Part shown: piece after piece, positions 49,264 to 64,000 of the stretch
Numbering within the stretch: position 1 is the stretch's first letter
Layout: each line of letters begins with the position of its first letter
From: Acidobacteriota bacterium
Lineage (GTDB): Bacteria; Acidobacteriota; UBA6911; RPQK01; JAJDTT01
Reading direction: 5' to 3'
NCBI GenBank assembly: GCA_965209055.1
Contig: OZ242374.1
Span: 1,760,001-1,824,000 of the forward strand
DNA: 64,000 nucleotides
Made by a program: the position numbers and the translations under genes
Notes under the pieces: model-generated
Told to the model about the DNA's origin: nothing
Seen by the model: the letters and a program-made list of their open reading frames with translations, nothing else
The model's database searches: none

Positions 49264-49340
49264 CGGGACGTGGCGCAGTCTGGTAGCGCACCTGAATGGG
49301 GTTCAGGAAGTCGGGAGTTCGAATCTCCCCGTCCCGACCA
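49264..49340 (+). tRNA. tRNA-Pro(GGG)
   Basis: CGGGACG acceptor, CCTGA-ATGGGGT-TCAGG, GAGTTCGAATCTC, CCA end. Confidence 0.96.
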
Positions 49341-49416: not shown

Positions 49417-49517
49417 AAAATACACCCGAAATTCCGAGCGGAGCGAACCGGCTCTTGAATATCGAAGGTCTCCCATTCCGATCCCACGACCTGTCGGACT
49501 GCTAGGACGGCCCGGAG

Positions 49518-49724
49518 ATGACGGAGCATGGGTTTTGAGCGACGGTGAGAACGACCCTGGATGAAGTGTTGGGATTCCGTCCCGACTTCATCCAGCACCA
49601 GTTTGCCCACGCGATGCGGGACCCCAACGGGTGGGCTTACAACCGCACGGCGTATCACCCTGAACGGCGAAAGATGATGCAGGAAGCGGACTACCTGGAT
49701 CAGTTGAAGGCTGTGAGAGAGTGA
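49518..49724 (+). pseudogene. C-terminal fragment of a P4-like tyrosine integrase
   Basis: MTEHGF*ATVRTTLDEVLGFRPDFIQHQFAHAMRDPNGWAYNRTAYHPERRKMMQEADYLDQLK; the catalytic R of HGFR is TGA. Confidence 0.85.
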
Positions 49725-49893
49725 TTCCGACTCAACCAGGCTTCTGGGCTTGAAAACTGTTTCGTAGTGCTGAGTTGGGGGGATCAAGTTGCGGGCAGGT
49801 CACCGTAGAAGATCACCTCCACGCTCAGGAGCGCCAGCTTGTAAGCCTACGCGAACGCATCGACCGCAGAGACGTCGCTTGAGAGCCTACTAG

Positions 49894-51662
49894 GAGCCTG
49901 TCCGAGAACTCAGCGTTGACCGATCCTTGTCCATAGCAATGCTCATGGGCAATGGCCCATGCTTGCGAATACCATCGAATCCTGCCCTCCAACCCCGTGG
50001 GAATCGATTTATTGGGCTATTTTCGACTCAGAAGCGGCCGATCAAGGCTGATTTTCGGCTTCACCCGCCTCACCCGCCCCTCTTTTGCGCCAACGCCGCC
50101 CGTTTTGCGTACTCCGGACACACCTCTCCCCGAACCGTCGTCAAAATGATTTTCTTGAGGTTGTGCGCGGCACACACCAGCGAGAACTCCCCGGCCACCC
50201 TCACCCTGCCACGCAGTCCGAACCCTCGGAAACTCGCGTTCTTGATCTGACCGAACACCGGCTCCACGATTACCTTGCGTCGCGCGTACAGCGCTCGGCT
50301 CTCCGGTTGCCTCATCCGCTCGTTCATGGCCCGGCGCAACCGCTCCTGACCGTTGCTCCTGATCGTGCGCGCCGCCCCCAACTTCGAACTGCAACAGCGA
50401 CGATAGTACCGACACGACACGCACACCTCGGCGTCGCCCTGATACACTCGTTGCCCCGAAGCCCGAGTCGTCTTTAGCGTCAGTAGCTGCCCCCCGGGGC
50501 AGTGGAAACCGTCCCGCTCCTCGTCGTAGCGAAAGTCCGCCTTCACCAGGCGACGGTCACTCTCCTCCAGACTCCCTTTGCCCGCCTTCTCTCCCCGGTC
50601 CGTCGCCACGTAGGCCTCGACCTCCCGTTCCGACAACTCCTGCAGGTTCTTCCCCGAATAGTAGCCGTGGTCCAGGCTCAGCTTTTCCGGCACCCGACCG
50701 GTCGCCGCCTCCACCTCATTCAGCGCCGGACTCACCTCCCGGTAATCGTTCGCCTGCTGACTCACGTGCTGCCCCACGATCACCTGCGCCTTCTCGTCCA
50801 CGCTGATCTGGGCGTTGTACGCGTACTCGAACCCCCCTTTTTGCTTCATGATCCGCGCGTCCGTGTCCGCAAAGCTGATCTGCTTCTTCTCGGCGATCCC
50901 TTCACCCGGTCTCAACTCGGCCTCGCGCCTCTGAAGCGCCCGCTTCGCCGCCTGGATCTTCTTCAATCGCGTCTTCTTGTCCCGCAAATCCTCCGGCAAC
51001 TCGTAGCCCGTGCGCTCCTGGTAGGCTCGGTCTCCTTCCTCGTCGCAACGGTCCGCCTGCGCCGTCATGGCTTCGATCTCCTCGCACAACTCCTGCTCCC
51101 ATTGCTTGAGCCGTCCGTAGCTCATCGCCTTGTGCTTCGAGCTGTTCGCCTTGAACTTGGAACCGTCCAGACTCACGTGTCCCAACCTCACCAGACCCAG
51201 CCCCATCGCCAAGGCCACCGTCTGTTTGAAGCAGGCCCGGAAAAACACCCCGTGGTCCTTCCGGAAATCGCTCAACACCCGGAAGTTCGGGCAGTTCATC
51301 CCGGCGATGTACAAGAATCCCAGATCCTCCCGGCACCGCTTCTCGATCTCCCGCGAACTGAACACCCCGTGACTGTAGGCGTAGATCAGGATCGAGACGA
51401 CCTGACCGGGAGGGTAGGCTCGCTGACCCCGGGGCTGTACTGGGCTTCCACTTCCGACGTGTCCAGTTGCCCGAACAGTTCCCGATAGAGGAAACAATCG
51501 TGATCCTCCGGCAACAGATCGAACACATTGGCCGGAAACAGCTGACTCTGGTAGTAGTCTTTCGGATAGGCTTTGAATCGCGGGGGCATCCAACACTCTC
51601 CTGATGATCAGATGCCCTGATTTTAAGGAGCTTCGGTGACAGCCCCGTTCTCGGACAGGCTC
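49894..51662 (-). mobile_element. IS1182-family insertion sequence
   Basis: Perfect 16-bp IRs GAGCCTGTCCGAGAAC / GTTCTCGGACAGGCTC, flanked on both sides by CTAG. Confidence 0.9.
50070..51589 (-). pseudogene. IS1182 transposase with frameshift near 51430
   Basis: MPPRFKAY..EAQYSP switches frame to RGQRAYPP..YAYSHGVFSSREIE, LDGSKFKANSSKH, YNAQI, VEPVFGQIK. Confidence 0.85.
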
Positions 51663-51736
51663 CTAGGAGAAATATCGAGAGAACCTGAAAATTATGCGTT
51701 CAGAGGGGATGTGTTGGATCGGCGATGCTGGACTAA

Positions 51737-53765
51737 GCGGAACTTCACTGCCCCCCAAACCCTAGCAAATCATTGAAATAGCGCCGGTTACGGTTCGCTA
51801 GACTCACTCTATAACTGGATATTTGTTTCCATGTATGGGATCGGTGTGTTTGTCAGTATTATCCTGTATCATTTGCATATCAGTGCTCATTACTGTTTCC
51901 ATGTAAGAGGTCGCCTCCCCATGTCCTACCACGTCGATGTCATCCCCAACCGCAACAGCCCCCCTGCCATCCTCTTCCGCCACGCCAAACGCGAGGGCAA
52001 ACGCATCCGCCGCACCACCCTCGCCAACCTCTCCAAGCTCCCCCCGGAGATCGTCGACGGCATCCGCGCCCTGCTCAAGGGTGGTCAAGTCTTCCACCCC
52101 CTGGACGACACCCTCTCCATTCGCCGCGCCCTGCCCCACGGCCATGTCGCTGCTCTCCTCGGCCTCGCCCGCCAACTCGGTCTGACACGCCTCCTGCACC
52201 GCAACCGCAGCCGCAACCGCGACCTCGCCCTCGCCGCCATCGTCGCCCGTGTGCTGGATCCCGCTTCCAAGCTCGCCACCGCCCGGAACCTGTCTCCCCA
52301 GACCGCCACCACCAGCCTCGGCCCGCTCCTCGGCCTCGGGCCGGTCCACGGCAACGAGATGCTCGGCATGCTCGACTGGTTGGTTCGCCGCCAAGTCTGG
52401 ATCGAGAAGAGCTTAGCGCGACGGCATCGGCCGGACCCTGCTGCTTTACGACGTCTCCTCCAGCTATCTGGAGGGACGCTCCTGTCCTCTGGCCGCGTTC
52501 GGCCATAACCGGGACGGCAAGAAAGGCAAGCCCCAGATCGTCTTCGGTCTGCTGTGCGCCGAGGACGGCTGCCCGCTGGCCGTGGAGGTCTTCTCCGGCA
52601 ACACAGGGGATCCGAAGACGGTGGCGTCGCAGGTCGAGAAGATCCAGGGGCGTTTCGGCATCGAGTCCATCGCCTTGGTCGGGGACCGCGGCATGCTCAC
52701 CACGGCGCGGCTGCGCGAGGATCTCTCACCGGCCGGACTGGCCTGGATCTCGGCCTTGAGAACCGACGCCATCCGCAAGCTGATGCGGCCGTCCAAATCG
52801 GGCACTGAAGGGGATCAGCCGGCTCCGTTGCGGCCGGGCGAGTTGGTTCCGGACCGGGTCGCGGAGATCCTCAGCCCGGAATTTCCCGGAGAACGCCTGC
52901 TGGTCTGCCTCAATCCCCGCTTGCGCCAGGACCGCGCCCGCAAGCGCGAGGAACTGCTGAAGGCGACCGAGGAGATTCTGGAGACGATCGCCAAGGCTGT
53001 GCGCTCCCCGAGATCGCAGCTGCGCGGCCAACAGGCGATCAACCGCCGGGTGGGCCGGGACGTGAACCGCAAGAAGGTCGCCAAGCACTTCCGGATCGAG
53101 GTGAGAGACGACGACATCCGCTGGTCCAGGAACCAGGAGAAGATCGACGCGGAGGCTCAACTGGATGGCATCTACATCGTGCGCACCAGCCTGGCGGCCT
53201 CCGAGATCGGGGCCTCGGAGGCGGTGGAGGCTTACAAGAGTCTCTCCCGGGTGGAACGGGCGTTTCGCTCGCTCAAGACGGCGCAGCTGGCCCTGCGCCC
53301 GGTGTACGTCTACAGCGAGGCCCATGTGCGCGGGCATGTCTTTCTGTGTCTGCTGGCGTATTACCTGGAGTGGCACCTGCGGCGAGCCCTGGCGCCGCTG
53401 CTGTTCGAGGAGGAGGATCGGGCCGGGGCGCGAGCGCTGCGGAAATCCCCGGTGGAAAAAGCGCAGGTGTCCGAGCGCACGAAGGCCAAGGCCTCGCGCA
53501 AACGGACCACTGACGGGCTCCCGGTGCAGAGCCTCCGGACGCTGCTGGCGAATCTCGGAACGCTCACCCTGAACCAGGTGGCTCTGCCGAACGCCCCGCA
53601 GCATCCGTTTGCGATGTTCGCCAAGCCGACGCCGGTGCAGGCGAAGGCTTTCGATTTGCTCGGCGTGGATCCGACCCGATTTGTTGCCAGTAAATGGCCA
53701 GGTTGATTTCTTCTATCTTCCTGATAGAGAAACAGTTAGACCGACTACCCGAAGTGAAGTTCCGA
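51737..53765 (+). mobile_element. IS1634-family insertion sequence
   Basis: Terminal IR core CGGAACTTCAC / GTGAAGTTCCG, flanked by CTAA on both sides. Confidence 0.8.
51921..53706 (+). pseudogene. IS1634 transposase with frameshift near 52430
   Basis: RTTLANLSKLP, RALPHGHVAA, SKLATAR, then shift to LYDVSSSYLEG..GHNRDGKKGKPQI, VGDRGM, VERAFRSLK. Confidence 0.85.
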
Positions 53766-54131: not shown

Positions 54132-54542
54132 TTACTGACTTCGCAGGTATTGCTCGGGGACAATCGGTTCTGGGAGTCGGCGCTTCTTGGACCTGGCAGC
54201 CAGTTCTTGCTGATACCCCCACCAATCTTTTTCGTTTTTAGGCCATCCAACTATGTTGGAATGCCCTGGCGGGTCATCGTCATCGTCTATGTCAAGTCCG
54301 CTTTGGCAAACGTCGGAGCGGGTCAATTCACCCCATCCATAGAGACGTTTCGCATAGCGTTGTTCCTGGACGACTCTGAGTCCCTCCTCGATGATCTCCT
54401 GGTCAGACTTGCCTTCAGTCCTGTAAACAGAGAGTTCGTGATTCTTATTTGGTTTGAACAGTCGAGGAGGGGGATGAGAGGTCCGGGACTTTATTTTGTT
54501 TCTCTCGACCGCGTATCGGGCGAGTGGAGTGTCTGATGCCAT
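54132..54542 (-). CDS. Putative ADP-ribosyltransferase-fold toxin
   Basis: LARY...FKP...ELSVYR...PPGHSNIVGWP gives an R-S-H spacing like Tse2-type ART folds; the fold call is inference. Confidence 0.55.
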   Translation of the reverse strand: MASDTPLARYAVERNKIKSRTSHPPPRLFKPNKNHELSVYRTEGKSDQEIIEEGLRVVQEQRYAKRLYGWGELTRSDVCQSGLDIDDDDDPPGHSNIVGWPKNEKDWWGYQQELAARSKKRRLPEPIVPEQYLRSQ

Positions 54543-54569
54543 TCAGATTTGCTCCGAATCCGAAACAAC

Positions 54570-55193
54570 TTATCCACACACTTTGCGGATCAAGTCCAGA
54601 ATGGACTCGGGAATCTTCTTCGTCCACGGTTCTGAGCCCTGTCCTTTTTCCCCTTGCATCCAGTAGGCGAAACCAATCTCTCCAGAGGAGAGAATACCGA
54701 TGTCCAGCATTACACGGTCTCTTGGAGTCCATTCAAACTCGATGGAGCCAAACGGGGTAGCACCGACGTAGAGATCTTCGTCGAGGGCTTCCTCGGGCAG
54801 TTGCTTGATGAACGAACGCGCAGTCTTGACTGTTTTAAGAGTAACCCGATCCGCGCCTTCTCCATCCCAGTTGTCCTCTTCACAGTTTCGTTTCAGTTGA
54901 TTGACCTCCTGGAGAATTCGTTGCCGCTGATCTGGAGGGTCGCTCACGTTGTGAGTTGGCCTGGGTGTGACGTTCGATATGGGGGACATTCCCGTGCCGC
55001 TTTCGTAATGGGGTCTTGAGAACGCGCCGGTATCAGAACTACTTGTGGGGACCTGGGCACCAGTAAGGCTGATGAAGAGCAAGGTAACCGGCACAGCTGA
55101 GGCCATCAATGGCGTGATAATGCGACGCCGGTCGGATCCAGTGTCAGTGTACTTGGACTGGTCGTTGGAGTAGATCCTCTGTGGGTCGTTCAT
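54570..55193 (-). CDS. Hypothetical protein with NWDGxGA...PxGxIxxEW domain, candidate antitoxin
   Basis: Low-complexity N-terminus with one hydrophobic stretch; C-terminal DNWDGEGAD..ATPFGSIEFEW; ATGA overlap with the upstream gene. Confidence 0.6.
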   Translation of the reverse strand: MNDPQRIYSNDQSKYTDTGSDRRRIITPLMASAVPVTLLFISLTGAQVPTSSSDTGAFSRPHYESGTGMSPISNVTPRPTHNVSDPPDQRQRILQEVNQLKRNCEEDNWDGEGADRVTLKTVKTARSFIKQLPEEALDEDLYVGATPFGSIEFEWTPRDRVMLDIGILSSGEIGFAYWMQGEKGQGSEPWTKKIPESILDLIRKVCG

Positions 55194-55558
55194 TGTATCG
55201 TGCTTCCTCCGTTGTCCTCACTGAGTTCCTTTTCCTTTTTGGCGTCAGGCATGTGTCGCTCCAGCCACGGAATAAGAGACTTCGCCACGGACGGACTGAG
55301 TATGATTTGCACTTCGGCTTCTCGAACGAACCCCTTTCTGGAGTCCCTTGAAATTTCAGGTCCGAGTTTCCCGTCAGGCCTGAGTTCGTGAACAACACGC
55401 TTGGGCATTGGTGAACGCTCGGAATAGAAAATCATTGCAATCGAGCCGCTTGGGGTTTGTCCACCCCATGCTCCATCCGCGTGAATCACACGGAAGTTGT
55501 TAGATTTGATGAAGTGGAAGTCAACTTTGTTACTCGGCAGCCGTTTACGTCGTGCCAT
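55190..55558 (-). CDS. Hypothetical DUF3467-like protein
   Basis: FRVIHADGAWGGQTPSGSIAMIFYSER..REAEVQIILSPSVAKSLIPWL; GGAGGA SD before ATG 55558. Confidence 0.65.
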   Translation of the reverse strand: MARRKRLPSNKVDFHFIKSNNFRVIHADGAWGGQTPSGSIAMIFYSERSPMPKRVVHELRPDGKLGPEISRDSRKGFVREAEVQIILSPSVAKSLIPWLERHMPDAKKEKELSEDNGGSTIQ

Positions 55559-55763
55559 TCTTTCCTCCGCGTGGGTGAGCGTTGCGCCCTTGCCCTTCAC
55601 ACTCAAGACACAAGCGATACAGTTGGTCTCTCAACGTGGATTATAAACTTGCGCTGACTTCTTCTCCAGTACGACATCCTTCATTGACGATCAATTTCAT
55701 CCCCTAGATTCTATACATCAGGATGGAATCGCGTGAAGGTAGCGGCCCGGAATCCATAGGCGA

Positions 55764-56543
55764 CTAACCCGGTAGCAACTGGTCCACCGTCCAAATCGAC
55801 CCCGCCAGTCCCGCCTCCATCGCCGGAGTGCAAGAGAGAGTTCCATGGATGCGGCCGAAGTTGTACCAGAAGAAGTGCAGAGAAAGGGACGCTCGTAGGT
55901 TCTCCAGCTTCTTCGAGAAGCACAGCGTCTTGCGATTCAGGCGGCGGACGAAGTTTCTCAGCGTCAGGTTCTGACGCTCAATCAAGCTGGTGGACACATC
56001 CATGCGTTCCATCCTGCCCATGATCGGGTAGGGCTTGATCCAGGCCGTGCCGTGGCCGAACTCCTTGGTCATTTGGGTGTAGTCCACATCGGCCCCAAAG
56101 ACTCGCTCCACGGCATCAATATAAGCATCCAGGGCGTCCGTGACAATTCTCGGCCGACCGATGATTCGCTCCTGCAACCGGTACATCAACCGATGGGCAA
56201 CCTCCGTGGTGCGTTTCCCCAGGGCGAAGGCCGGGATGAGTTTGGTGTCCCGGTCCATGGCAATGAAGATCCACTGGCTGCCGACCGTCTCCGGGTCCGT
56301 TGATGTTACATGCTTGTCCTTCTTGGCGACGAAAGACCATGCCTCATCCACTTGGACGACCGAGGGCCTGAAACCGCGAATGTGTTCTCGGGAGAGTTCG
56401 TCGCAGTGTTTTCCGGTGCGGACCATGAGCCGCATGATGGTGTCTCGGTGGTTTCCGGTCAGCCGCTCCACCGAACGGATGGAGCAGCCCTCCAGGAGCA
56501 TGTGGATGGCGGTTTTCTGCTTTTGCGGTGAGAGTCGATTCAT
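55764..56543 (-). CDS. IS1-family DDE transposase (single ORF, intact)
   Basis: N-terminal HTH (LLEGCSIRSVERLTG), VQVDEAWSFV, IVTDALDAY, STSLIERQNLTLR, FSKK, TPAMEAGL. Confidence 0.85.
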   Translation of the reverse strand: MNRLSPQKQKTAIHMLLEGCSIRSVERLTGNHRDTIMRLMVRTGKHCDELSREHIRGFRPSVVQVDEAWSFVAKKDKHVTSTDPETVGSQWIFIAMDRDTKLIPAFALGKRTTEVAHRLMYRLQERIIGRPRIVTDALDAYIDAVERVFGADVDYTQMTKEFGHGTAWIKPYPIMGRMERMDVSTSLIERQNLTLRNFVRRLNRKTLCFSKKLENLRASLSLHFFWYNFGRIHGTLSCTPAMEAGLAGSIWTVDQLLPG

Positions 56544-56636
56544 TGTGACTTGACCTGCGCCCTGGCCAAGTCGCACAATGGTGTGGATCAGACACTCAGT
56601 CGTTCAGCGCAACTGGCTTGGGTGGCTTGAGAGTGC

Positions 56637-56664
56637 AAGGCCGGGAGTTGCCGCTCCCGGCCTT
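56637..56664. promoter_or_regulatory. Perfect 11-bp stem-loop upstream of the transposase
   Basis: AAGGCCGGGAG-ttgccg-CTCCCGGCCTT. Confidence 0.6.
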
Positions 56665-56670
56665 ACTGTT

Positions 56671-57150
56671 TCAGTTAGTTTCCTCTACTCTTCTCCTTCT
56701 TCTTCTGACTCGTCGCGGTCTGTCCCAATGCGGCAACCCCCATTTGTTGTTGTGCAGGACGACCCTGGGATTCTCCTTGCTCCGCTCATTGGAGAGAGCG
56801 GTGGAGAACACTCGGCTGGGATTCGCTGACGTGGTTCGTACTCCGTCTATCAACGCCATCTGCGTCAGGTCCTGGATGGGCATCCATTGGTTGGCCGCAT
56901 CCAGCAACGCGACCAGACGGTCAATAGTGTTCTTGGTTTCGTCTGAGACCCCCTTTTCCAGAGAGAATAGGCAGGCCCGCAGTTCGCCGTCAGAATTGGT
57001 CTTGATTTCCGAAATGAGAAGGGTTACCTGGTCCCATGCGCCATCATGTTTCTCCTTGAGGTCCTTGATGAGGGCGATGTGAATCTGGATTTGCTCCCGG
57101 AGTTCCCTCACTACCTCGATTCGCTTTTGGAGTTCTTCATACTGATCCAT
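56671..57150 (-). CDS. Coiled-coil plus winged-HTH (HARE-HTH-like) protein
   Basis: GGAGGAG SD; heptad-like N-terminus; C-terminal PIQDL..NPSRVFSTALS..KWGLPHW and Arg-rich tail. Confidence 0.6.
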   Translation of the reverse strand: MDQYEELQKRIEVVRELREQIQIHIALIKDLKEKHDGAWDQVTLLISEIKTNSDGELRACLFSLEKGVSDETKNTIDRLVALLDAANQWMPIQDLTQMALIDGVRTTSANPSRVFSTALSNERSKENPRVVLHNNKWGLPHWDRPRRVRRRRRRVEETN

Positions 57151-57269
57151 GGACACACTCCTCCCGTTTGACACGGACTTCTCGGCCGGATAGGATCAGG
57201 GAACCACTTGATTCGTGACGCACAGTGGGAATCGGCTAGCAACCAATGTCCACCGTGGCGTCTGGCGTA

Positions 57270-57345
57270 TGAGGGGGGCGGCGGGTATTGACCCCGCGAC
57301 TTCCCGGTTAGCAGCCGGGTGTTCTATCCACTGAACTACGCCCCC
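57270..57345 (-). ncRNA. Non-canonical tRNA-like RNA (GCT anticodon, short variable loop)
   Basis: GGGGGCG/CGCCCCC acceptor, GTTC/GAAC D stem, CCCGG-CTGCTAA-CCGGG, AAGTC variable loop, GCGGG-GTCAATA-CCCGC, 3' C-TCA. Confidence 0.8.
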
Positions 57346-57408
57346 TTAATACTCTTCATCAATTGTTCCCAAGCGATCACCTCACCGCGGTTCCAATTGT
57401 CAGGCAGC

Positions 57409-57437
57409 ATTCTACTTTTTTTGGTGGCCTGCGTCAA
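57409..57437 (-). promoter_or_regulatory. sigma70 promoter for the tRNA-like RNA/wHTH/transposase arm
   Basis: TTGACG-N17-TAGAAT. Confidence 0.72.
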
Positions 57438-57479
57438 TGCTGCTACGAAAAAATCTGTCAGGTAGATTGTCGTGTGATT

Positions 57480-57524
57480 AGCATGGATAGCATGGTCAGC
57501 ATGGATAGCATGGTCAGAATGACT
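57480..57524. repeat. 9-bp tandem repeat between divergent promoters
   Basis: AGCATGGAT AGCATGGTC AGCATGGAT AGCATGGTC AGAATGACT. Confidence 0.8.
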
Positions 57525-57567
57525 ATCAAGAGACTAACAAATACGGTTTTCGTAGCGTGAAATCGTC

Positions 57568-57596
57568 TTGACAGTTTCACCCCGCCTTTCTACAAT
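57568..57596 (+). promoter_or_regulatory. sigma70 promoter for the structured leader/HIRAN gene
   Basis: TTGACA-N17-TACAAT. Confidence 0.75.
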
Positions 57597-57860
57597 CCTC
57601 ACCGTCGTTATCCGCAGCAGGCTCCTGTGTCGGGCCTCCTGCTGAATAGAACAGTCCATATACCCAAGGACCGGGTAGCTCCCGGCCCTTATGGACGAAC
57701 AGGCGGGTATTCCTACAGCCTTGCTGCGAGATGACGACGGGCCCGACTCCTGAACAATGGTCGGGCCGTTCGCTCTGTGTCGGCGTGTGAGTCAGCCCAG
57801 CGGTGATTTGAGGCTACTGGGAAACCTCCCTGGCGCAGGGCCCTCGACAAGGAGGTGCCT

Positions 57861-58382
57861 ATGGCCACAAAGAAATCCAAATTCATCAACACCAAGGTTG
57901 CCGGCGTCACCTTCGCCAACGACGACGGCACCCAACGCCAGGACATCATCAAGGGCCTCACCATGGGGGAGCAGGTACTCCTGGTTCGAGACCATGACAA
58001 CGAGCATGACTTCTATGCGGTCCAGGTACAGACCACGGAAAAGGAGGTCATCGGCTGGGTGCCCCGCACAAAGACTCCTCAGGTAGCAACATGGATAGAC
58101 GGTGGAAGGCTTGCGGTTGGCATGGTTGCCAGCCGGGGGAAGGCACGGGGGAAGGACCTTGTTGGTATCAACATTGATATCATGCTCGTGGAGGAGGGGG
58201 ACCGGAGATGGGTGGAGGACTTTCTTCAGACGGGTGATATTGAAGGGGCGCAGCGTCGGGAGAGAAAACGGATTCGGAGAGAGGCAGAAGCGGAAAACAG
58301 CGGCTGTCTACCAAGTCTGCTGATCGTGTGTGCCATCCTCACCCTTGCCGCGGCCTGCGGCCTCGCCATGCTCGGACGGTAA
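57861..58382 (+). CDS. HIRAN domain protein with C-terminal transmembrane helix
   Basis: KVAGVTFAN..RQDII..GEQVLLVRDHDNEHDFYAVQV..IGWVPR; C-terminal CLPSLLIVCAILTLAAACGLAML; AAGGAGG SD. Confidence 0.8.
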   Translation: MATKKSKFINTKVAGVTFANDDGTQRQDIIKGLTMGEQVLLVRDHDNEHDFYAVQVQTTEKEVIGWVPRTKTPQVATWIDGGRLAVGMVASRGKARGKDLVGINIDIMLVEEGDRRWVEDFLQTGDIEGAQRRERKRIRREAEAENSGCLPSLLIVCAILTLAAACGLAMLGR

Positions 58383-58487
58383 CCGCGCAAATTAGGACAC
58401 TACCCGTTCGCTCGATTGAATAGTACCGGCTCTCTTGACATGATACACTGACCAGTCGCGAGAGGCTACCTAGGCCGGACGTTTCGG

Positions 58488-59353: not shown

Positions 59354-62300
59354 ATGCTAAGACACACGGTCAGTGGGTTCGCCTCAGTTTGCGACGTTTT
59401 CAGAAGAGATATTTTTTTCTGCATCAGGAGGGGCTTTCTCCCCCTCTTGGCGGCAATGCTGCTCGCTGCGCCGCAGTTGGCGTTCGCGAACGGTCTGTCC
59501 GTGACCGTAAATCCCGGGTCGTTGGATCTCACCGAAGGAGGAAGTACCGGTGAATACACGGTGGTTCTGGACGATGCGCCAGAGGAGGACGTTGTCATAG
59601 AGGTGGTGGGTGTCGACGAGGATGTCCTGACTGTCAGTACTGCCACGCTCACTTTTACTGCCGACGTTGGAGATACCGAAGGCTCCTGGAACACCGCCCA
59701 GACCGTTACAGTGACGACCGTCGAGGACGACGATGCTGCGGACGAAAGGATCGTCCTGACGCACACAGCGAAGATGGGACGCCGTGACGCCGTACCACTG
59801 GCGGCGGATACTTCCGTGGTTGTGAGAATCACGGACGATGACACAGCTAACAAACGCGTGATCATCTCGGAGACGGAAGCGACCGTCCCTGAGGCGGGCG
59901 TGGCCGATACCTATACAGTGACCCTGGGAACCCGGCCCACGGGGACCGTAACGGTGGACGTCGGCGGTGTAACGGGTGAGCTTTCAGTCAGCCCTTCACG
60001 TCTGGTTTTCAGACCGGGGGATTGGAGAGACGGAGCCGGGAGTGCTATTACGCCGGCCGCGAAGACGGTTTCGATCTTTGCGGGCAATGACTTCGACGCG
60101 GACGATGACAAGGCCACCCTGACACACAAGGTGAGAGGTGGGGATTACAGCAACGTACGAGCAGGGACGGTCGAGGTGACGGTTGACGACGACGACACAC
60201 GACGTATAACGGTCGTTCCAGCCTCGTTGAACGTAGCGATAGAGAAGAGTGGAACCTTCACGATCAAACTGGACACACAACCGAAGGGGACGGTGACCGT
60301 TCTGGTGGTAAAGGACCCGAGCAATACGGATGCCCAAGTCAGGGTGAGTCCCAGCAGTGTGAGATTTTCGACCGGCGACTGGAATCGACCGAAGACGGTA
60401 ACGGTCACGGCAGGGTCATCGGCTGTCGCCGGTTCCGCGACGGTGGATCTGAGTGTGGACGCATCACCGAAAAATCGGGACACGGACTACACCACTACCG
60501 AACTATCTTCTGCGACTGTCGGGGTAACTATTTCGGACGCGCTGCCCTCGGAGACCGTAACACTGACTAGTTTCCCGAGTCTCGTGGAGGAAGGGTCGAC
60601 AAAGGAGTACACCGTTAAATTGGACAGGAATCCCAGTGTGGCGACCCGGACCGTTTACGTGACCTCCTCAGATACCGCCTCCGTCACTGTGGCACCGGCC
60701 TCATTGGATTTCACCCAAGATCCTGAGGGCACAACAGACGGCACATGGAGAACGTCTCGGACTGTAACCGTCACCGGCGTACGGGATGGCGACGCGGTGG
60801 AAGAGACCGTCGTCGTGGCCCATCGGTTTACTTCAGCAACTGGACCCATTGTCAGAACCTCAACAGTGAGGGTTGACGAACTGAATACGCGCGGCGTGTC
60901 GGTCTCCAGAACCGAACTGGAGGTCAAGGAGGGTACGAGTAACACCTACACCCTCACTCTGGACTCTGACCCGGTTGGCGGGCCCGTAACGGTGACGATC
61001 ACCGCATCCTCAAACCAGGTCACCATCAGTCCCTCTCAGGTGACATTCACGAGTCAGGGGGTTTCGGAGACGGTGACGGTGACTGCTGTTGGAGACGAAG
61101 ATGCATCAGCAAACCCCTCCGTCACCTTGAGTCACAAGGTCCGTGGTGCTGTTGGGGACTACGACAACTTCTCGGTGAGTAACGTCAAGGTGACGGTCCC
61201 GGAGGCCCAAAAAACCGGCATCGAGATTATGGGCCAGCCGGCGAGCATGACTGAGGGAACCAGTGAAACGTACGAAGTTCGTTTGACGGCCCAACCAACG
61301 GGAACCGTGACGGTTCGGATACGTAGCGACTCCGATGACGTGACCCTGAGACCGTCCCAGTTGAGGTTCACGACCAGTAGTTGGAATCAATATCAGACGG
61401 TCAGGATCAGAGCCGAACATGACGCCGATGCGGACGACGACCCGGAGGTGACGTTGACGCACATCGCGAGTGGAGGCGGCTACGACCAGGTGTCGAAGGA
61501 AACCCAGCTGGACGTCATGGAAGACGATGTGTCCCAGAAGGGTGTACGCGTAAGTCCAAGTGCATTGACGATTACCGAGGGTGGATCCGAGAGAAGGTAC
61601 ACGATCAATCTCATGACCAGACCTACGGCAACCGTACGGGTACGGTTGGGAGTTGACCCGTCTGACGCGGCACCCAGAATTCAGATAAAACCGAATCAGA
61701 TGACATTCACTCCGGACAATTGGAATGTTCCGGTGACGGTGACGGTAAGTGCGCCAGAGGACCACGTTGACCAAGGTACCCACACTGACGTGGACGTAAC
61801 CCACACACTAAGCGGTGGCGGCTACGACGACCAGGCGCCTACTGTAGATGTGAGAATCAGAGACAACGACGAACGGGGTGTCACCCTGAATCCTGTGGAA
61901 TTGGAGGTCGTTCAGGGCTTTTGGCAGGAATACACCGTAAGACTGGATTCTCAGCCTGCTTCAACTACTGCCGGCGCCCCCGTTGTAACAATCAGTCCGA
62001 CAAGAGGTGTTACCGGTGTGACGGTGAGTCCGGGAACGTTGACCTTCACGGCATCAAATTGGTCCTCTCCACAGAAGGTAAGGGTCAGTGCCGGGGACGA
62101 CGCTACGCCGGGCACAGGGTCTGTGACACACACGGTTGCCGCAGCAGACACCGACTACAGTGCTGAATCGGCTGGCAGTGTGGCCCTTGACATCAAGGAC
62201 AACGCCGTGGATGGCGTCGCCGTAAGTCCAACCGTACTGGAGGTTCTGGAAGGGACCAGTGAGTCTTACACCATCGTGTTGACGCAGAAACCTGATAAGA

Positions 62301-64000
62301 ACGTCTCCATCAAGATATCTGGAGCCGCCGACGATGTCAGCGTGAGTCCCAGTTCCATGACCTTTTCAACGACGAACTGGAGCAAAGAGAGAAAAGTGAC
62401 CGTAAACGTCCGTTCGGACGACGATGGAAGCGACGACCCTCCAATAACTCTTACACACGAGGTCACCAGCGAGGACACCGAATACGATGGTTTAGTCCCA
62501 TCGCCTGTCACGGTGACACCCAAAGACGATGATCCGCTTGGGGTCACGGTGACACCCACGTCCCTGACCGTCGCGGCGGGTTCACTTGGAACCTATACCG
62601 TCAAGTTGGACACCCAGCCGTTGGATGCGGTAACCGTGGCTGTGAACGACCCCCCATTGGAATCCATAACCGTCGAAGGTGCCCCACTGGTCTTCACGAC
62701 AACCGACTGGAAAACCGCACAGACGATCACGGTAAAGGTCGACAGGGATGGTGGGGAGGACAACGAACAGACGGTCACGTTGACCCATACCGTGTACGGT
62801 GGAGACTACCCAGGGGACGGAGATGTTCCGTCCGTAACCGTGATCATCCCGGTGGAGGGGGCACCGAGTGCGCCCAGGAACCTCAGCGCGGCAGGCGGCA
62901 ACGAACGAGTCACGTTGAGTTGGGAAGCTCCTGCGAACGACGGGGGTTCCTCAATCACCGGCTATCAGGTCCGTTACCGAGTGGCCGGCACTGAAAACTA
63001 CGGTTCTTGGAGATCTGTGACTGGAACCAGTACTACCGTCACCGGGCTGGACAACGGTACGTCCTACCAGTTCCAGGTTCGAGCGGTCAATGGAACCTCG
63101 CCGGGACCACCGGCGGAGACGACCGAGACACTGGCGAATTCAGCCCCGGGAGCGCCTCCGGGATTGACGGCAACCGGTGGTGACGAGAGCGTCACGTTGA
63201 ACTGGAGTGCACCGGAAGACGGTGGCTCTCAGATTATCCGTTACGAATACCGGTACGCCGCGACGGGACAGACGTTCAGCGACTGGGAAACCGTCAGTGG
63301 TGGCGGAAACGCGACGAGCGTTTCCGTCGACAATCTGACCAATGGTACCGAATACGGATTCCAGGTCCGGGCGGTGAACCAGATCGGCGAGGGCCCGCAT
63401 GCCAGCGCCAGCGCGACGCCTGGGAGGGTGCCGAGCGCGCCGACGGGACTGACGGCGAAATCCGAAAGCGAAACGATCACCGTGATGTGGGGAGCGCCGG
63501 CCGACAACGGCGGCTCCGCAATTACCAGCTACCAGGTGCGCTACCGCATGAACGGTAGTAACTGGAGCAACTGGGCCACGGTGGCGGGCGGGGCAAATGC
63601 CACCAGCTACATCCTGACCGGACTGACCAACGGGATCGGCCATGAAATTGAGGTCAGGGCGGTGAACGCCATAGGTTTTAGCGCCGCTGCCTCAGTCGAG
63701 GCCACGCCCATGGCGGGCATCGACTTCGCCCACTTTGCCAACGGTACATCAGGTGGAGTGACCATCACCTCCGACATTGTGTTGGTGAATGTGGAGACCT
63801 CCGCAGTGACGCCGGCCATCTACTTCTACAACCAGCAGGGCGACATGATCGACGCCGATTCGGTGGTGGATGTGTCCGCAGATATGGAGGTTGCAGGCGA
63901 CGGCGCCTTGACCGTTCCCATGGGAATCCCGCGCCGAGGCGAAATGACAATTTCGACCAACGGCGACGGCGCCCTGGTGGTCGGATCGGTGAGAGTCTTC
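59354..64000 (+). CDS. Large secreted surface protein: about 10 Calx-beta/Ig-like repeats, 3 FN3 domains, further C-terminal domain (3' end outside window)
   Basis: GGAGG SD, signal ending PQLAFA, repeats of type LxVxEG..YTVxL..P..VTV..LTFT..W..QTVTV..LTH, FN3 units (APSAPRNL, APGAPPGL, VPSAPTGL); same frame at the window end and absent from the ORF track, consistent with no stop. Confidence 0.88.
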   Translation, partial: MLRHTVSGFASVCDVFRRDIFFCIRRGFLPLLAAMLLAAPQLAFANGLSVTVNPGSLDLTEGGSTGEYTVVLDDAPEEDVVIEVVGVDEDVLTVSTATLTFTADVGDTEGSWNTAQTVTVTTVEDDDAADERIVLTHTAKMGRRDAVPLAADTSVVVRITDDDTANKRVIISETEATVPEAGVADTYTVTLGTRPTGTVTVDVGGVTGELSVSPSRLVFRPGDWRDGAGSAITPAAKTVSIFAGNDFDADDDKATLTHKVRGGDYSNVRAGTVEVTVDDDDTRRITVVPASLNVAIEKSGTFTIKLDTQPKGTVTVLVVKDPSNTDAQVRVSPSSVRFSTGDWNRPKTVTVTAGSSAVAGSATVDLSVDASPKNRDTDYTTTELSSATVGVTISDALPSETVTLTSFPSLVEEGSTKEYTVKLDRNPSVATRTVYVTSSDTASVTVAPASLDFTQDPEGTTDGTWRTSRTVTVTGVRDGDAVEETVVVAHRFTSATGPIVRTSTVRVDELNTRGVSVSRTELEVKEGTSNTYTLTLDSDPVGGPVTVTITASSNQVTISPSQVTFTSQGVSETVTVTAVGDEDASANPSVTLSHKVRGAVGDYDNFSVSNVKVTVPEAQKTGIEIMGQPASMTEGTSETYEVRLTAQPTGTVTVRIRSDSDDVTLRPSQLRFTTSSWNQYQTVRIRAEHDADADDDPEVTLTHIASGGGYDQVSKETQLDVMEDDVSQKGVRVSPSALTITEGGSERRYTINLMTRPTATVRVRLGVDPSDAAPRIQIKPNQMTFTPDNWNVPVTVTVSAPEDHVDQGTHTDVDVTHTLSGGGYDDQAPTVDVRIRDNDERGVTLNPVELEVVQGFWQEYTVRLDSQPASTTAGAPVVTISPTRGVTGVTVSPGTLTFTASNWSSPQKVRVSAGDDATPGTGSVTHTVAAADTDYSAESAGSVALDIKDNAVDGVAVSPTVLEVLEGTSESYTIVLTQKPDKNVSIKISGAADDVSVSPSSMTFSTTNWSKERKVTVNVRSDDDGSDDPPITLTHEVTSEDTEYDGLVPSPVTVTPKDDDPLGVTVTPTSLTVAAGSLGTYTVKLDTQPLDAVTVAVNDPPLESITVEGAPLVFTTTDWKTAQTITVKVDRDGGEDNEQTVTLTHTVYGGDYPGDGDVPSVTVIIPVEGAPSAPRNLSAAGGNERVTLSWEAPANDGGSSITGYQVRYRVAGTENYGSWRSVTGTSTTVTGLDNGTSYQFQVRAVNGTSPGPPAETTETLANSAPGAPPGLTATGGDESVTLNWSAPEDGGSQIIRYEYRYAATGQTFSDWETVSGGGNATSVSVDNLTNGTEYGFQVRAVNQIGEGPHASASATPGRVPSAPTGLTAKSESETITVMWGAPADNGGSAITSYQVRYRMNGSNWSNWATVAGGANATSYILTGLTNGIGHEIEVRAVNAIGFSAAASVEATPMAGIDFAHFANGTSGGVTITSDIVLVNVETSAVTPAIYFYNQQGDMIDADSVVDVSADMEVAGDGALTVPMGIPRRGEMTISTNGDGALVVGSVRVF

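Follow-up and report, generated by a model that had tools for sequence, protein, structure and literature searches.

Within a stretch of 64,000 nucleotides (nt) from an Acidobacteriota bacterium (assembly GCA_965209055.1, contig OZ242374.1, positions 1,760,001 to 1,824,000), here called the window and used for all coordinates unless another sequence is named, we studied a solitary transfer RNA (tRNA) gene on the minus strand. Its anticodon GCU reads the serine codons AGC and AGU and thus matches no arginine codon, while its body carries determinants of arginine tRNAs. This orphan tRNA is best explained as an "irregular" tRNA gene, intact and horizontally acquired, whose identity is uncoupled from its anticodon. 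Our tentative reading of its role, held with less than even confidence, is that of an irregular missense tRNA of Arg type, able to be charged and to read AGY codons, which would cause a low level of serine-to-arginine replacement. The gene and its 3' flank are located as follows:

57273..57345, minus strand: class-I tRNA of 73 nt with anticodon GCU, A20, G54 and C73 (ARAGORN, Rfam and fold)
57270..57272, minus strand: TCA directly after C73, CCA being unencoded (read from the sequence)

As judged from its sequence, the orphan gene is a genuine tRNA and structurally intact. ARAGORN calls it tRNA-Ser(gct) with 73 nt, and the Rfam model RF00005 matches it with 65.5 bits (threshold 29; E 5e-12 for the whole window), in the range of the three other tRNAs of the window (63.9-66 bits). 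It is composed of the acceptor strands GGGGGCG/CGCCCCC, TA at positions 8-9, the D arm GTTC-AGTGGATA-GAAC, a single A followed by the anticodon arm CCCGG-CTGCTAA-CCGGG, the 5-nt variable loop AAGTC, the T arm GCGGG-GTCAATA-CCCGC, and C73 followed by TCA. All 21 pairs in the stems of 7, 4, 5 and 5 base pairs (bp) are Watson-Crick, with no mismatch and no G-U pair. The minimum free energy structure is the cloverleaf itself (-36.6 kcal/mol, 64% of the ensemble, z -2.48, 1 of 200 shuffles equally good). The original prediction, an earlier reading of this stretch, had proposed a fully paired cloverleaf with GCT anticodon, short variable loop, T loop GTCAATA, C as discriminator and a terminal TCA, and all of these features are found in the sequence, with gene call, Rfam score and fold in agreement; its length of 76 nt is reached only if the TCA is counted. 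The conserved nucleotides U8, A14, G18G19, A21, U33, A37, G53, U55, C56, A58 and C61 are kept, the G15/C48 pair is present, and every deviation from a standard tRNA is single-stranded, none falling among the 42 stem bases. Since just 35 of the 68 ARAGORN tRNA calls of this genome have an encoded CCA, its lack is not disqualifying, and a match to the CCA-adding-enzyme family PF01743 is present in the genome.

The assignment to arginine is based on the bacterial identity set given by Giege & Eriani (2023, PMC9976931), in which A20 is the main determinant, accompanied by C35 and U/G36, by A/G73 and U73, and by the pairs G2-C71 and C3-G70. The D loop of the orphan tRNA reads G18 G19 A20 U20a A21. 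Apart from the orphan, the only tRNAs of this genome with the GGAUA pattern are tRNA-Arg(acg, ccg, tcg); tRNA-Arg(CCT) in the phylum has the same D loop as the orphan. The anticodon G34 C35 U36 supplies both C35 and U36, such that, with A20 and G2-C71, four of the six Arg elements are present, the other two being position 73 and the 3:70 pair. A single arginyl-tRNA synthetase (ArgRS) is encoded in the genome (at 5.84 Mb), with the D-loop-binding domain Arg_tRNA_synt_N, a catalytic domain and a DALR anticodon-binding domain; a tRNA-Arg(cct) is also present elsewhere in the genome. ArgRS thereby appears to be the only synthetase for which all major determinants occur in the orphan tRNA.

Charging by seryl-tRNA synthetase (SerRS) is unlikely, because the established bacterial Ser identity set consists of a long variable arm and G73, and the orphan tRNA has a 5-nt variable loop and C73 instead. 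The mismatch between an AGY-reading Ser anticodon and the remaining tRNA body, as originally proposed, is borne out by these two absences and by the specific Arg determinants, and what had been offered as a mischarged AGY reader becomes a concrete prediction, namely charging with arginine. It is most improbable that the gene is an ordinary tRNA-Ser served by an unusual SerRS, or else the attachment-site remnant of an integrative element. Its anticodon loop CUGCUAA is shared with the canonical tRNA-Ser(gct) of the genome, and one of the metagenomic relatives described below (L077) lies beside a tyrosine integrase. However, that canonical long-arm tRNA-Ser(gct) exists at 1.44 Mb (92 nt as printed by ARAGORN, CCA included), the orphan lacks both Ser features, it is of full length and has its own promoter, no integrase occurs among the 15 open reading frames (ORFs) scanned at 49.3-64 kb, and no second copy or partial repeat of the tRNA is found in the genome.

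Other identities leave traces as well. Acceptor stem and C73 are one pair different from the genome's own tRNA-His. Histidine identity via G-1 was rejected: position -1 is A, no register yields G-1:C73, and the Thg1 family is absent from the genome. With the exception of C35, a tRNA-Asn of Pseudomonas phage HU1 has the same anticodon arm and variable loop, and C35 destroys the Asn/Asp anticodon. The anticodon is one base change away from Arg(CCU) and one from Asn(GUU). With a His-like acceptor, an Asn-like anticodon arm and an Arg-like D arm, the tRNA therefore looks like a mosaic. Descent by decay from a resident tRNA was rejected, the best resident match being identical at just 56 of 73 positions.

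For the missense tRNA, we envisage the following course. The gene's own sigma-70-type promoter would drive its transcription, probably as the 5' part of a joint transcript with the downstream ORF1 (see below). RNase P and 3' processing would release the tRNA, to which CCA would be added. The cell's only ArgRS, not SerRS, would recognize A20, C35 and U36, in keeping with the published bacterial Arg set. The resulting Arg-tRNA(GCU) would read AGC and AGU and place arginine where serine is encoded, and G54, C73 and the unencoded CCA would keep its activity low. Intact architecture, Arg determinants, matching ArgRS domains and the precedent of irregular and mistranslating tRNAs support this reading.

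Several observations, here and among the metagenomic relatives, weigh against it. C73 is not among the discriminator bases listed for bacterial tRNA-Arg and the 3:70 pair is G3-C70 rather than the Arg-type C3-G70; arginine charging may therefore be poor. T54 is nearly universal in tRNAs, and position 54, a G in the orphan, is the sole conserved tRNA nucleotide that deviates. The CCA that is missing from the gene counts on the same side. No synthetase paralogue lies near the tRNA: the genome has one ArgRS, one histidyl-tRNA synthetase (HisRS) and three class IIb enzymes, none of them adjacent. Orthologues of the tRNA were found in none of eight same-genus genomes, 60 relatives and 400 phylum genomes (these tallies include the genomes G016, G083 and G202, which are flagged unpublished and enter no other claim). 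Plasmids gave no tRNA match, and phages no orthologue, the one phage match being a normal tRNA-Asn. No RNA run was listed that contains the DNA of 56600-58400. A possible use in recoding of the neighbouring transposon was rejected, as the AGY codons of three tRNA-adjacent IS1-family transposases fall in Ser or variable columns in a comparison with 31 homologues; AGY position 197 of the window transposase is Ser in 31 of 31 homologues. No local gene appears to need AGY as Arg. Finally, HisRS-charged irregular tRNAs were reported to be unused in E. coli translation (Mukai et al. 2017, PMC5389517).

The tRNA is embedded in a piece of about 2 kb with the minus-strand order promoter, tRNA, ORF1, hairpin and IS1-family transposase gene. 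The features of this piece and its surroundings are:

57409..57437, minus strand: sigma-70-like promoter TTGACG-N17-TAGAAT (10/12 match)
57475..57519, no strand assigned: five tandem 9-bp repeats of the TGGATAGCA/TGGTCAGCA type, between two divergent promoters
57568..57596, plus strand: divergent promoter-like site TTGACA-N17-TACAAT for the HIRAN-domain gene (11/12 match)
57855-58382, plus strand: HIRAN-domain ORF (Pfam HIRAN)
56671..57150, minus strand: ORF1 of 159 amino acids (aa) with a coiled coil and a HARE-HTH-like C-terminus, starting 122 nt downstream of the tRNA (ORF list)
56628..56673, minus strand: hairpin with 20-nt arms at the ORF1 end, separating ORF1 from the IS1-family element (repeat finder)
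55764..56576, minus strand: IS1-family DDE transposase of 270 aa, a single ORF with an N-terminal helix-turn-helix (Pfam DDE_Tnp_IS1)
49264..49340, plus strand: tRNA-Pro(ggg), left border of a variable stretch rich in insertion sequences (IS) (ARAGORN)

The promoter was part of the original prediction and is found at 57437-57409; transcription would start approximately 57 nt ahead of the first tRNA nucleotide. The interval 56500-57700 contains four promoter-like sites versus 0.8 expected from shuffles. No terminator-like site lies between tRNA and ORF1 on the minus strand in the terminator scan. ORF1 has no match in Pfam, NCBIfam or PADLOC; an Atlas lead places it in a cluster of which 14% of the members carry PF05066 (HARE-HTH), and among 400 phylum genomes a single weak match was obtained. 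The repeat finder reported four overlapping 18-nt copies with a spacing of 9 bp, which we read as five 9-bp units; they could serve as operator sites for a regulator such as ORF1. The hairpin may act as a terminator.

The original prediction had further placed the tRNA upstream of a winged-helix transposase unit and inside a mobile element, and had considered it as a decoy or antitoxin RNA for an ADP-ribosyltransferase (ART) toxin. The supposed unit resolves into two genes, the HARE-HTH-like ORF1 and the IS1-family transposase, with the hairpin between them. The transposase gene begins approximately 0.7 kb downstream of the tRNA, and its plasmid homologues are annotated as IS1 family transposase. 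Homology to the closest IS1-family copies is limited to 55766-56556, i.e., the transposase ORF only; therefore, tRNA and ORF1 adjoin the IS and are not part of it. Inverted repeats around tRNA and transposase are unconvincing. The location in a mobile element thus holds in the wider sense of an IS-rich, strain-specific stretch, not for the adjoining IS1-family element. A search for homologues near the same transposase family had also been suggested, and none of 29 homologous transposase loci in the phylum carries such a tRNA. On this count, and given that the genome holds no other copy, the tRNA as IS1 cargo was rejected. As to the toxin, none of the 15 ORFs at 49.3-64 kb matches ADP-ribosyltransferase families (Pfam, NCBIfam and PADLOC; E <= 5 for six unknown ORFs), and more generally no toxin-antitoxin, toxin or nuclease family was recognised near the tRNA in these three databases. 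Because no ART was found, the proposed function as a decoy for it is unsupported; a decoy role in general is possible and is taken up below.

The tRNA stretch is strain-specific, low in GC, rich in IS and foreign in its context. Synteny with eight same-genus genomes ends at the 3' end of tRNA-Pro(ggg) (49340), followed by IS copies and then by scattered matches. The same-genus genome G005 is collinear with 54241-55530 and 57592-58205 and has 510 unrelated bases in place of 55531-57591. The GC content of 53.8-57.6 kb is approximately 53%, compared to 62.8% for the genome. No second tRNA occurs within 7 kb of the orphan.

Some observations on the surroundings are added for completeness. The HIRAN-domain ORF has a further match in PADLOC, to the candidate defence family PDC-M03B (E 8.7e-10), and is conserved in two same-genus genomes. 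An IS with a DDE_Tnp_1 transposase spans 51739-53765; the genome has five further copies of it with 98% identity, and the genus has many. A second IS with a DDE_Tnp_1_6/DUF772 transposase spans 49891-51670. Just past tRNA-Pro(ggg), a repeat of about 200 bp (49515-49714) recurs at five other genome sites (476856, 1244494, 1581713, 1991062 and 2525053) with 80-88% identity, three of which lie at most about 400 bp from copies of tRNA-Leu(taa) at 477237, 1991443 and 2524782 (ARAGORN). Several fibronectin type III domains are encoded by an ORF of over 1548 aa (59354-64000, plus strand), which runs past the end of the window.

In the orthologue search among the 400 phylum genomes, the best BLAST matches were tRNA-Arg(CCT) of other classes, with 78-81% identity over positions 8-71. 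Among 341 phylum genomes, the D-arm pattern was found in its GCT form once, in this genome, and in its CCT form in nine genomes, none of which belongs to this genome's own class. A signature of the odd T loop, CTGCTAA-N7-GTC-N5-GTCAATA, gave 23 matches on genome contigs and two on viral contigs, none of them a tRNA by ARAGORN, and was dismissed as chance.

Relatives of the orphan tRNA were collected from metagenomes with the pattern TCAGTGGATAGARC-N6-CTGCTAA, which covers D arm and anticodon loop. It matched 34 times; 29 matches are short tRNA(gct) genes by ARAGORN, representing 22 distinct sequences, and four of the remaining five have a tRNA-like Rfam match. The Arg-like D arm of these relatives is forced by the search pattern and hence gives no independent evidence for arginine identity. 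Nine of the 22 distinct relatives show no stem mismatch. The other 13, with at least one mismatch each, and the four relatives with non-canonical T loops are to be added to the points held against a missense tRNA. Compensatory change across the relatives is seen at 17 of the 21 pairs and, like the nine relatives with faultless stems, counts in favour of the missense tRNA. Identical relatives were recovered from several metagenomes (L057=L064=L080; L062=L076; L075=L079; L066=L078).

The contexts of the relatives are mixed, including an integrase, IS, defence-type ATPases and also a methionyl-tRNA synthetase. Pfam searches on 90 neighbouring ORFs revealed AAA_15/AAA_21 three times, DUF5343 twice, Beta_protein twice, an IS1595-family (ISXO2-like) transposase and housekeeping genes. 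The nearest relative, L085, has the same D arm and T stem as the window tRNA; at L085:162-346 (minus strand), six bases separate the GCU tRNA from a following class-II tRNA that is Leu-like and has a UGG (Pro) anticodon. At L088:2868-3389 (plus strand), a class-II tRNA (UUC, C33), a GCU tRNA and a third, Arg-like tRNA whose anticodon loop has 8 nt form an array adjoined by a DUF5343 ORF, and in L079 a DUF5343 ORF sits between the tRNA and an IS1-family transposase. An IS1-family transposase downstream on the same strand is found in three of the 22 distinct relative loci and in the window, a co-occurrence that is unexplained. It is the sole neighbour type common to the window and the metagenomic loci; six neighbour proteins of the window gave no tblastn match (E <= 0.1) in these loci.

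Further unusual tRNA genes came to light in this genome and in the phylum. A tandem of three irregular tRNAs (G000:C1:2737867-2738174, minus strand, equal to L131:3870-4174) lies directly 3' of an IS1595-family transposase ORF. Two of its members, with Rfam scores of 55.4 and 51.3 bits, are class-II Leu-like (A73) tRNAs with an AGA anticodon. An odd Gly(gcc)-like tRNA, at 47.8 bits, completes the tandem; in its acceptor and D arm it agrees with the GCU tRNA of L088. An 88-nt class-II-like tRNA with the Phe anticodon GAA (ARAGORN; G000:C1:1718587-1718674, plus strand) is located about 1.2 kb from a fragment related to the same IS1595-family transposase (1719892-1720797, minus strand). In other phylum genomes, three short genes resembling tRNAs each lie just past an IS1-family transposase gene (L100:3410-3484, L105:2552-2624 and L111:2546-2618, all minus strand); their anticodons are of Ser (GGA, TGA) or Ala (AGC) type, and they have 3-bp D stems and no long arm, and score 57, 49 and 32 Rfam bits, respectively.

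Provenance and relatives together bear on the explanation that the orphan tRNA is an inert passenger, imported on foreign DNA and without a role in this host. It may have been functional in its donor, or may derive from a tRNA of the tRNA-Arg(CCU) or tRNA-Asn(GUU) type disabled by changes in anticodon and T loop. We consider this unlikely. The low GC content, the unrelated replacement in G005, the nearly unmatched ORF1 and the missing tRNA orthologues are all as expected of such an import. The single base separating the anticodon from either ancestor, the resemblance to the HU1 tRNA-Asn and the one GCT form versus nine CCT forms in the phylum fit as well, and the stem mismatches in 13 of 22 relatives are what sporadic decaying anticodon mutants would show. 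However, the deviations of the orphan spare its stems, a near-consensus promoter is kept at a suitable distance, and the relatives recur unchanged across several metagenomes. Moreover, a dedicated partner RNA accompanies about a third of the relatives, which would not be expected of random anticodon mutants.

This partner was recognised as a perfect complement, 10-15 nt in length, of positions 24-38 of the relative's own tRNA, ending exactly at the anticodon, and it counts against a purely translational role. It occurs in seven of the 22 distinct relatives (L065, L068, L070, L072, L075/L079, L082 and L083), 20-113 nt downstream of the tRNA or, in L072, about 78 nt upstream. Compared with shuffles, these complements reach p <= 0.01 and z-scores of 4-13; among control tRNAs, z >= 4 was reached by none of the 68 tRNA calls of the genome and by one of 50 other tRNAs in the fetched loci. 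The complement (..AGCAG..) covers the anticodon loop, the 5' anticodon stem and a strand of the D stem. By eye, the complementary sites are at the predicted start of short units with promoter and terminator, implying a predicted "anti-tRNA" small RNA of 55-105 nt; the promoter and terminator scan backs such small units in L072 and L083, not in L065.

A second variant is an acceptor-less tRNA-like core, identical in three viral contigs (L053:2402-2461, minus strand; L054:270-329, plus strand; L055:13317-13376, plus strand) and in L073:1801-1860 (plus strand). It retains the D arm, the GCU anticodon arm and the T arm (Rfam model positions 7-64, 49.6 bits). Read by eye, its first nucleotide corresponds to about tRNA position 8 and directly follows a TTGACT-N17-TATTAT promoter, and a terminator marks its end. 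As there is no 5' acceptor strand, this phage version cannot be aminoacylated, which again speaks against charging as the common function. Anti-tRNA RNAs and acceptor-less versions point to a function in the anticodon and D arms, not in charging; taken together with stem mismatches and odd T loops, they suggest that at least some members of the class act outside translation.

The window tRNA has neither an anti-tRNA partner nor a loss of the acceptor, its acceptor stem being perfect. The best complement nearby is an exact match of 8 nt (p 0.27), and 81 and 43 of 200 shuffles were equally good for the downstream and upstream side (z 0.2 and 0.8, respectively). Genome-wide, only chance-level complements of the tRNA were found. 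The antisense regulation of the downstream transcript that the original prediction had considered thus finds no target in the window, while seven of the 22 metagenomic relatives do have one.

These data lead to the alternative of a tRNA-shaped non-coding RNA acting outside translation, freed from the ORF1 leader by tRNA-processing enzymes. Such an RNA might act via its anticodon and D arms, either by sequestering ArgRS, an anticodon nuclease or a tRNA-modifying enzyme in the manner of a decoy or sponge, or by antisense pairing with another RNA; in another version, the tRNA would merely set the 5' end of the ORF1 mRNA. We regard this as possible, if somewhat doubtful. G54, C73 and the missing CCA hit features relevant to ribosome and synthetase while all stems are kept, and the tRNA is placed between promoter and ORF1 with no terminator-like site intervening. 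The RNase P-processed regulators C4 of P1 and CI of P4 provide a precedent. The anticodon-arm complements, rare among the control tRNAs, and the acceptor-less core with its own promoter and terminator argue in the same direction, as do the irregular tRNAs that are charged yet unused in translation (Mukai et al. 2017, PMC5389517). However, a complementary target is undetectable in the window or, beyond chance, in the genome, and a 7-bp acceptor stem, G18G19/U55C56 and a U33/A37 loop exceed the needs of RNase P or of an antisense RNA. The neighbourhood, too, provides no recognised toxin or nuclease gene, and shares with the metagenomic loci only the IS1-family transposase.

A more speculative idea, which we consider quite improbable, would combine the missense tRNA with its partner RNA. 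Arg-type GCU tRNAs would then provide the toxin in addiction or defence modules made of RNA alone, the window variant being under a different control. A stable missense tRNA, inserting Arg for Ser, would be restrained by a short-lived small RNA whose 5' end (AGCAG...) pairs with the anticodon loop and invades anticodon and D stems. The acceptor-less copies of phages would be decoys for the partner RNA. In the window, the HARE-HTH-like ORF1 would instead repress the shared promoter via the five 9-bp repeats. If the element or the repressor were lost, the tRNA would become toxic to translation.

Natural tRNAs rarely uncouple anticodon and amino acid, and those that do are for the most part untested; they include Pro-type tRNAs that come with their own synthetase and, from soil bacteria, the irregular tRNAs. 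A tRNA of canonical appearance that combines Arg marks with a Ser anticodon would, if true, be a further kind, for which the housekeeping ArgRS suffices and no special enzyme is required. Replacement of serine by arginine is drastic, so such a gene should be tightly limited, or else be a weapon or a regulator. The relatives, with their anti-anticodon small RNA and acceptor-less phage forms, offer a concrete system for experiments. The window gene is a single copy. The class to which it points is unusual and open to direct tests. Full-text searches revealed no description of an Arg-type tRNA with GCU anticodon, although the supplements of Mukai et al. (2017), which were outside the search, may list similar sequences. 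No follow-up work on irregular tRNAs turned up. These searches covered Arg-type/GCU and irregular tRNAs; a module of tRNA and anti-tRNA small RNA was not searched for.

Among known systems, the C4 RNA of phages P1/P7 and the CI RNA of P4 are regulatory RNAs processed by RNase P, and their targets lie on the transcript from which they come. They resemble the orphan tRNA as cloverleaf-like RNAs that start an operon transcript in a mobile context, and seven relatives share the nearby complement; they differ in that they are not full tRNAs, and that the window has no complementary target. tRNA-Other of Bacillus cereus, described by Ataide and co-workers in 2005, is reportedly a tRNA-like small RNA of odd identity, connected with LysRS1/LysRS2, maybe charged and not a standard decoder. 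It is alike in its odd identity and different in structure and synthetase.

The closest likeness in kind is to the irregular missense-suppressor-like tRNAs of soil bacteria, which occur near transposons and toxin-antitoxin genes (Mukai et al. 2017, NAR 45:2776, PMC5389517). These share with the orphan the mismatch of anticodon and identity, the transposable elements nearby and a suggested role in missense suppression and/or regulation, and one group likewise has a GCU anticodon. Their tandem arrays are reminiscent of the arrays in this genome and in L085 and L088. In contrast, the window tRNA stands alone and has a canonical 7/5 architecture without long variable arm, extra loop or G-1; we found no Arg-type identity set described there. 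The features of allo-tRNAs (8/4 or 9/3 architecture, a 12-bp acceptor branch and a long variable arm) are likewise absent from the orphan, with its 7/5 architecture and 5-nt variable loop.

The tRNAProX/ProRSx pair of Streptomyces and relatives (Schuntermann et al. 2023, PMC10404621; review PMC11415595) is a further case of a bacterial tRNA that bears another amino acid's anticodon, there for programmed mistranslation, and that has unusual nucleotides at conserved positions. It differs by a dedicated synthetase paralogue and A33/A34, whereas this genome has one ArgRS and no paralogue near the tRNA, and the orphan has a normal U33. Alloacceptor anticodon shifts, finally, also put another family's anticodon, a single base change away, on the body of one family (Rogers & Griffiths-Jones 2014, PMC3923123). 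They concern eukaryotic multigene families in which the charged amino acid shifts with the anticodon. In contrast, the window tRNA keeps the Arg determinants C35 and U36, so its identity would not follow the codon.

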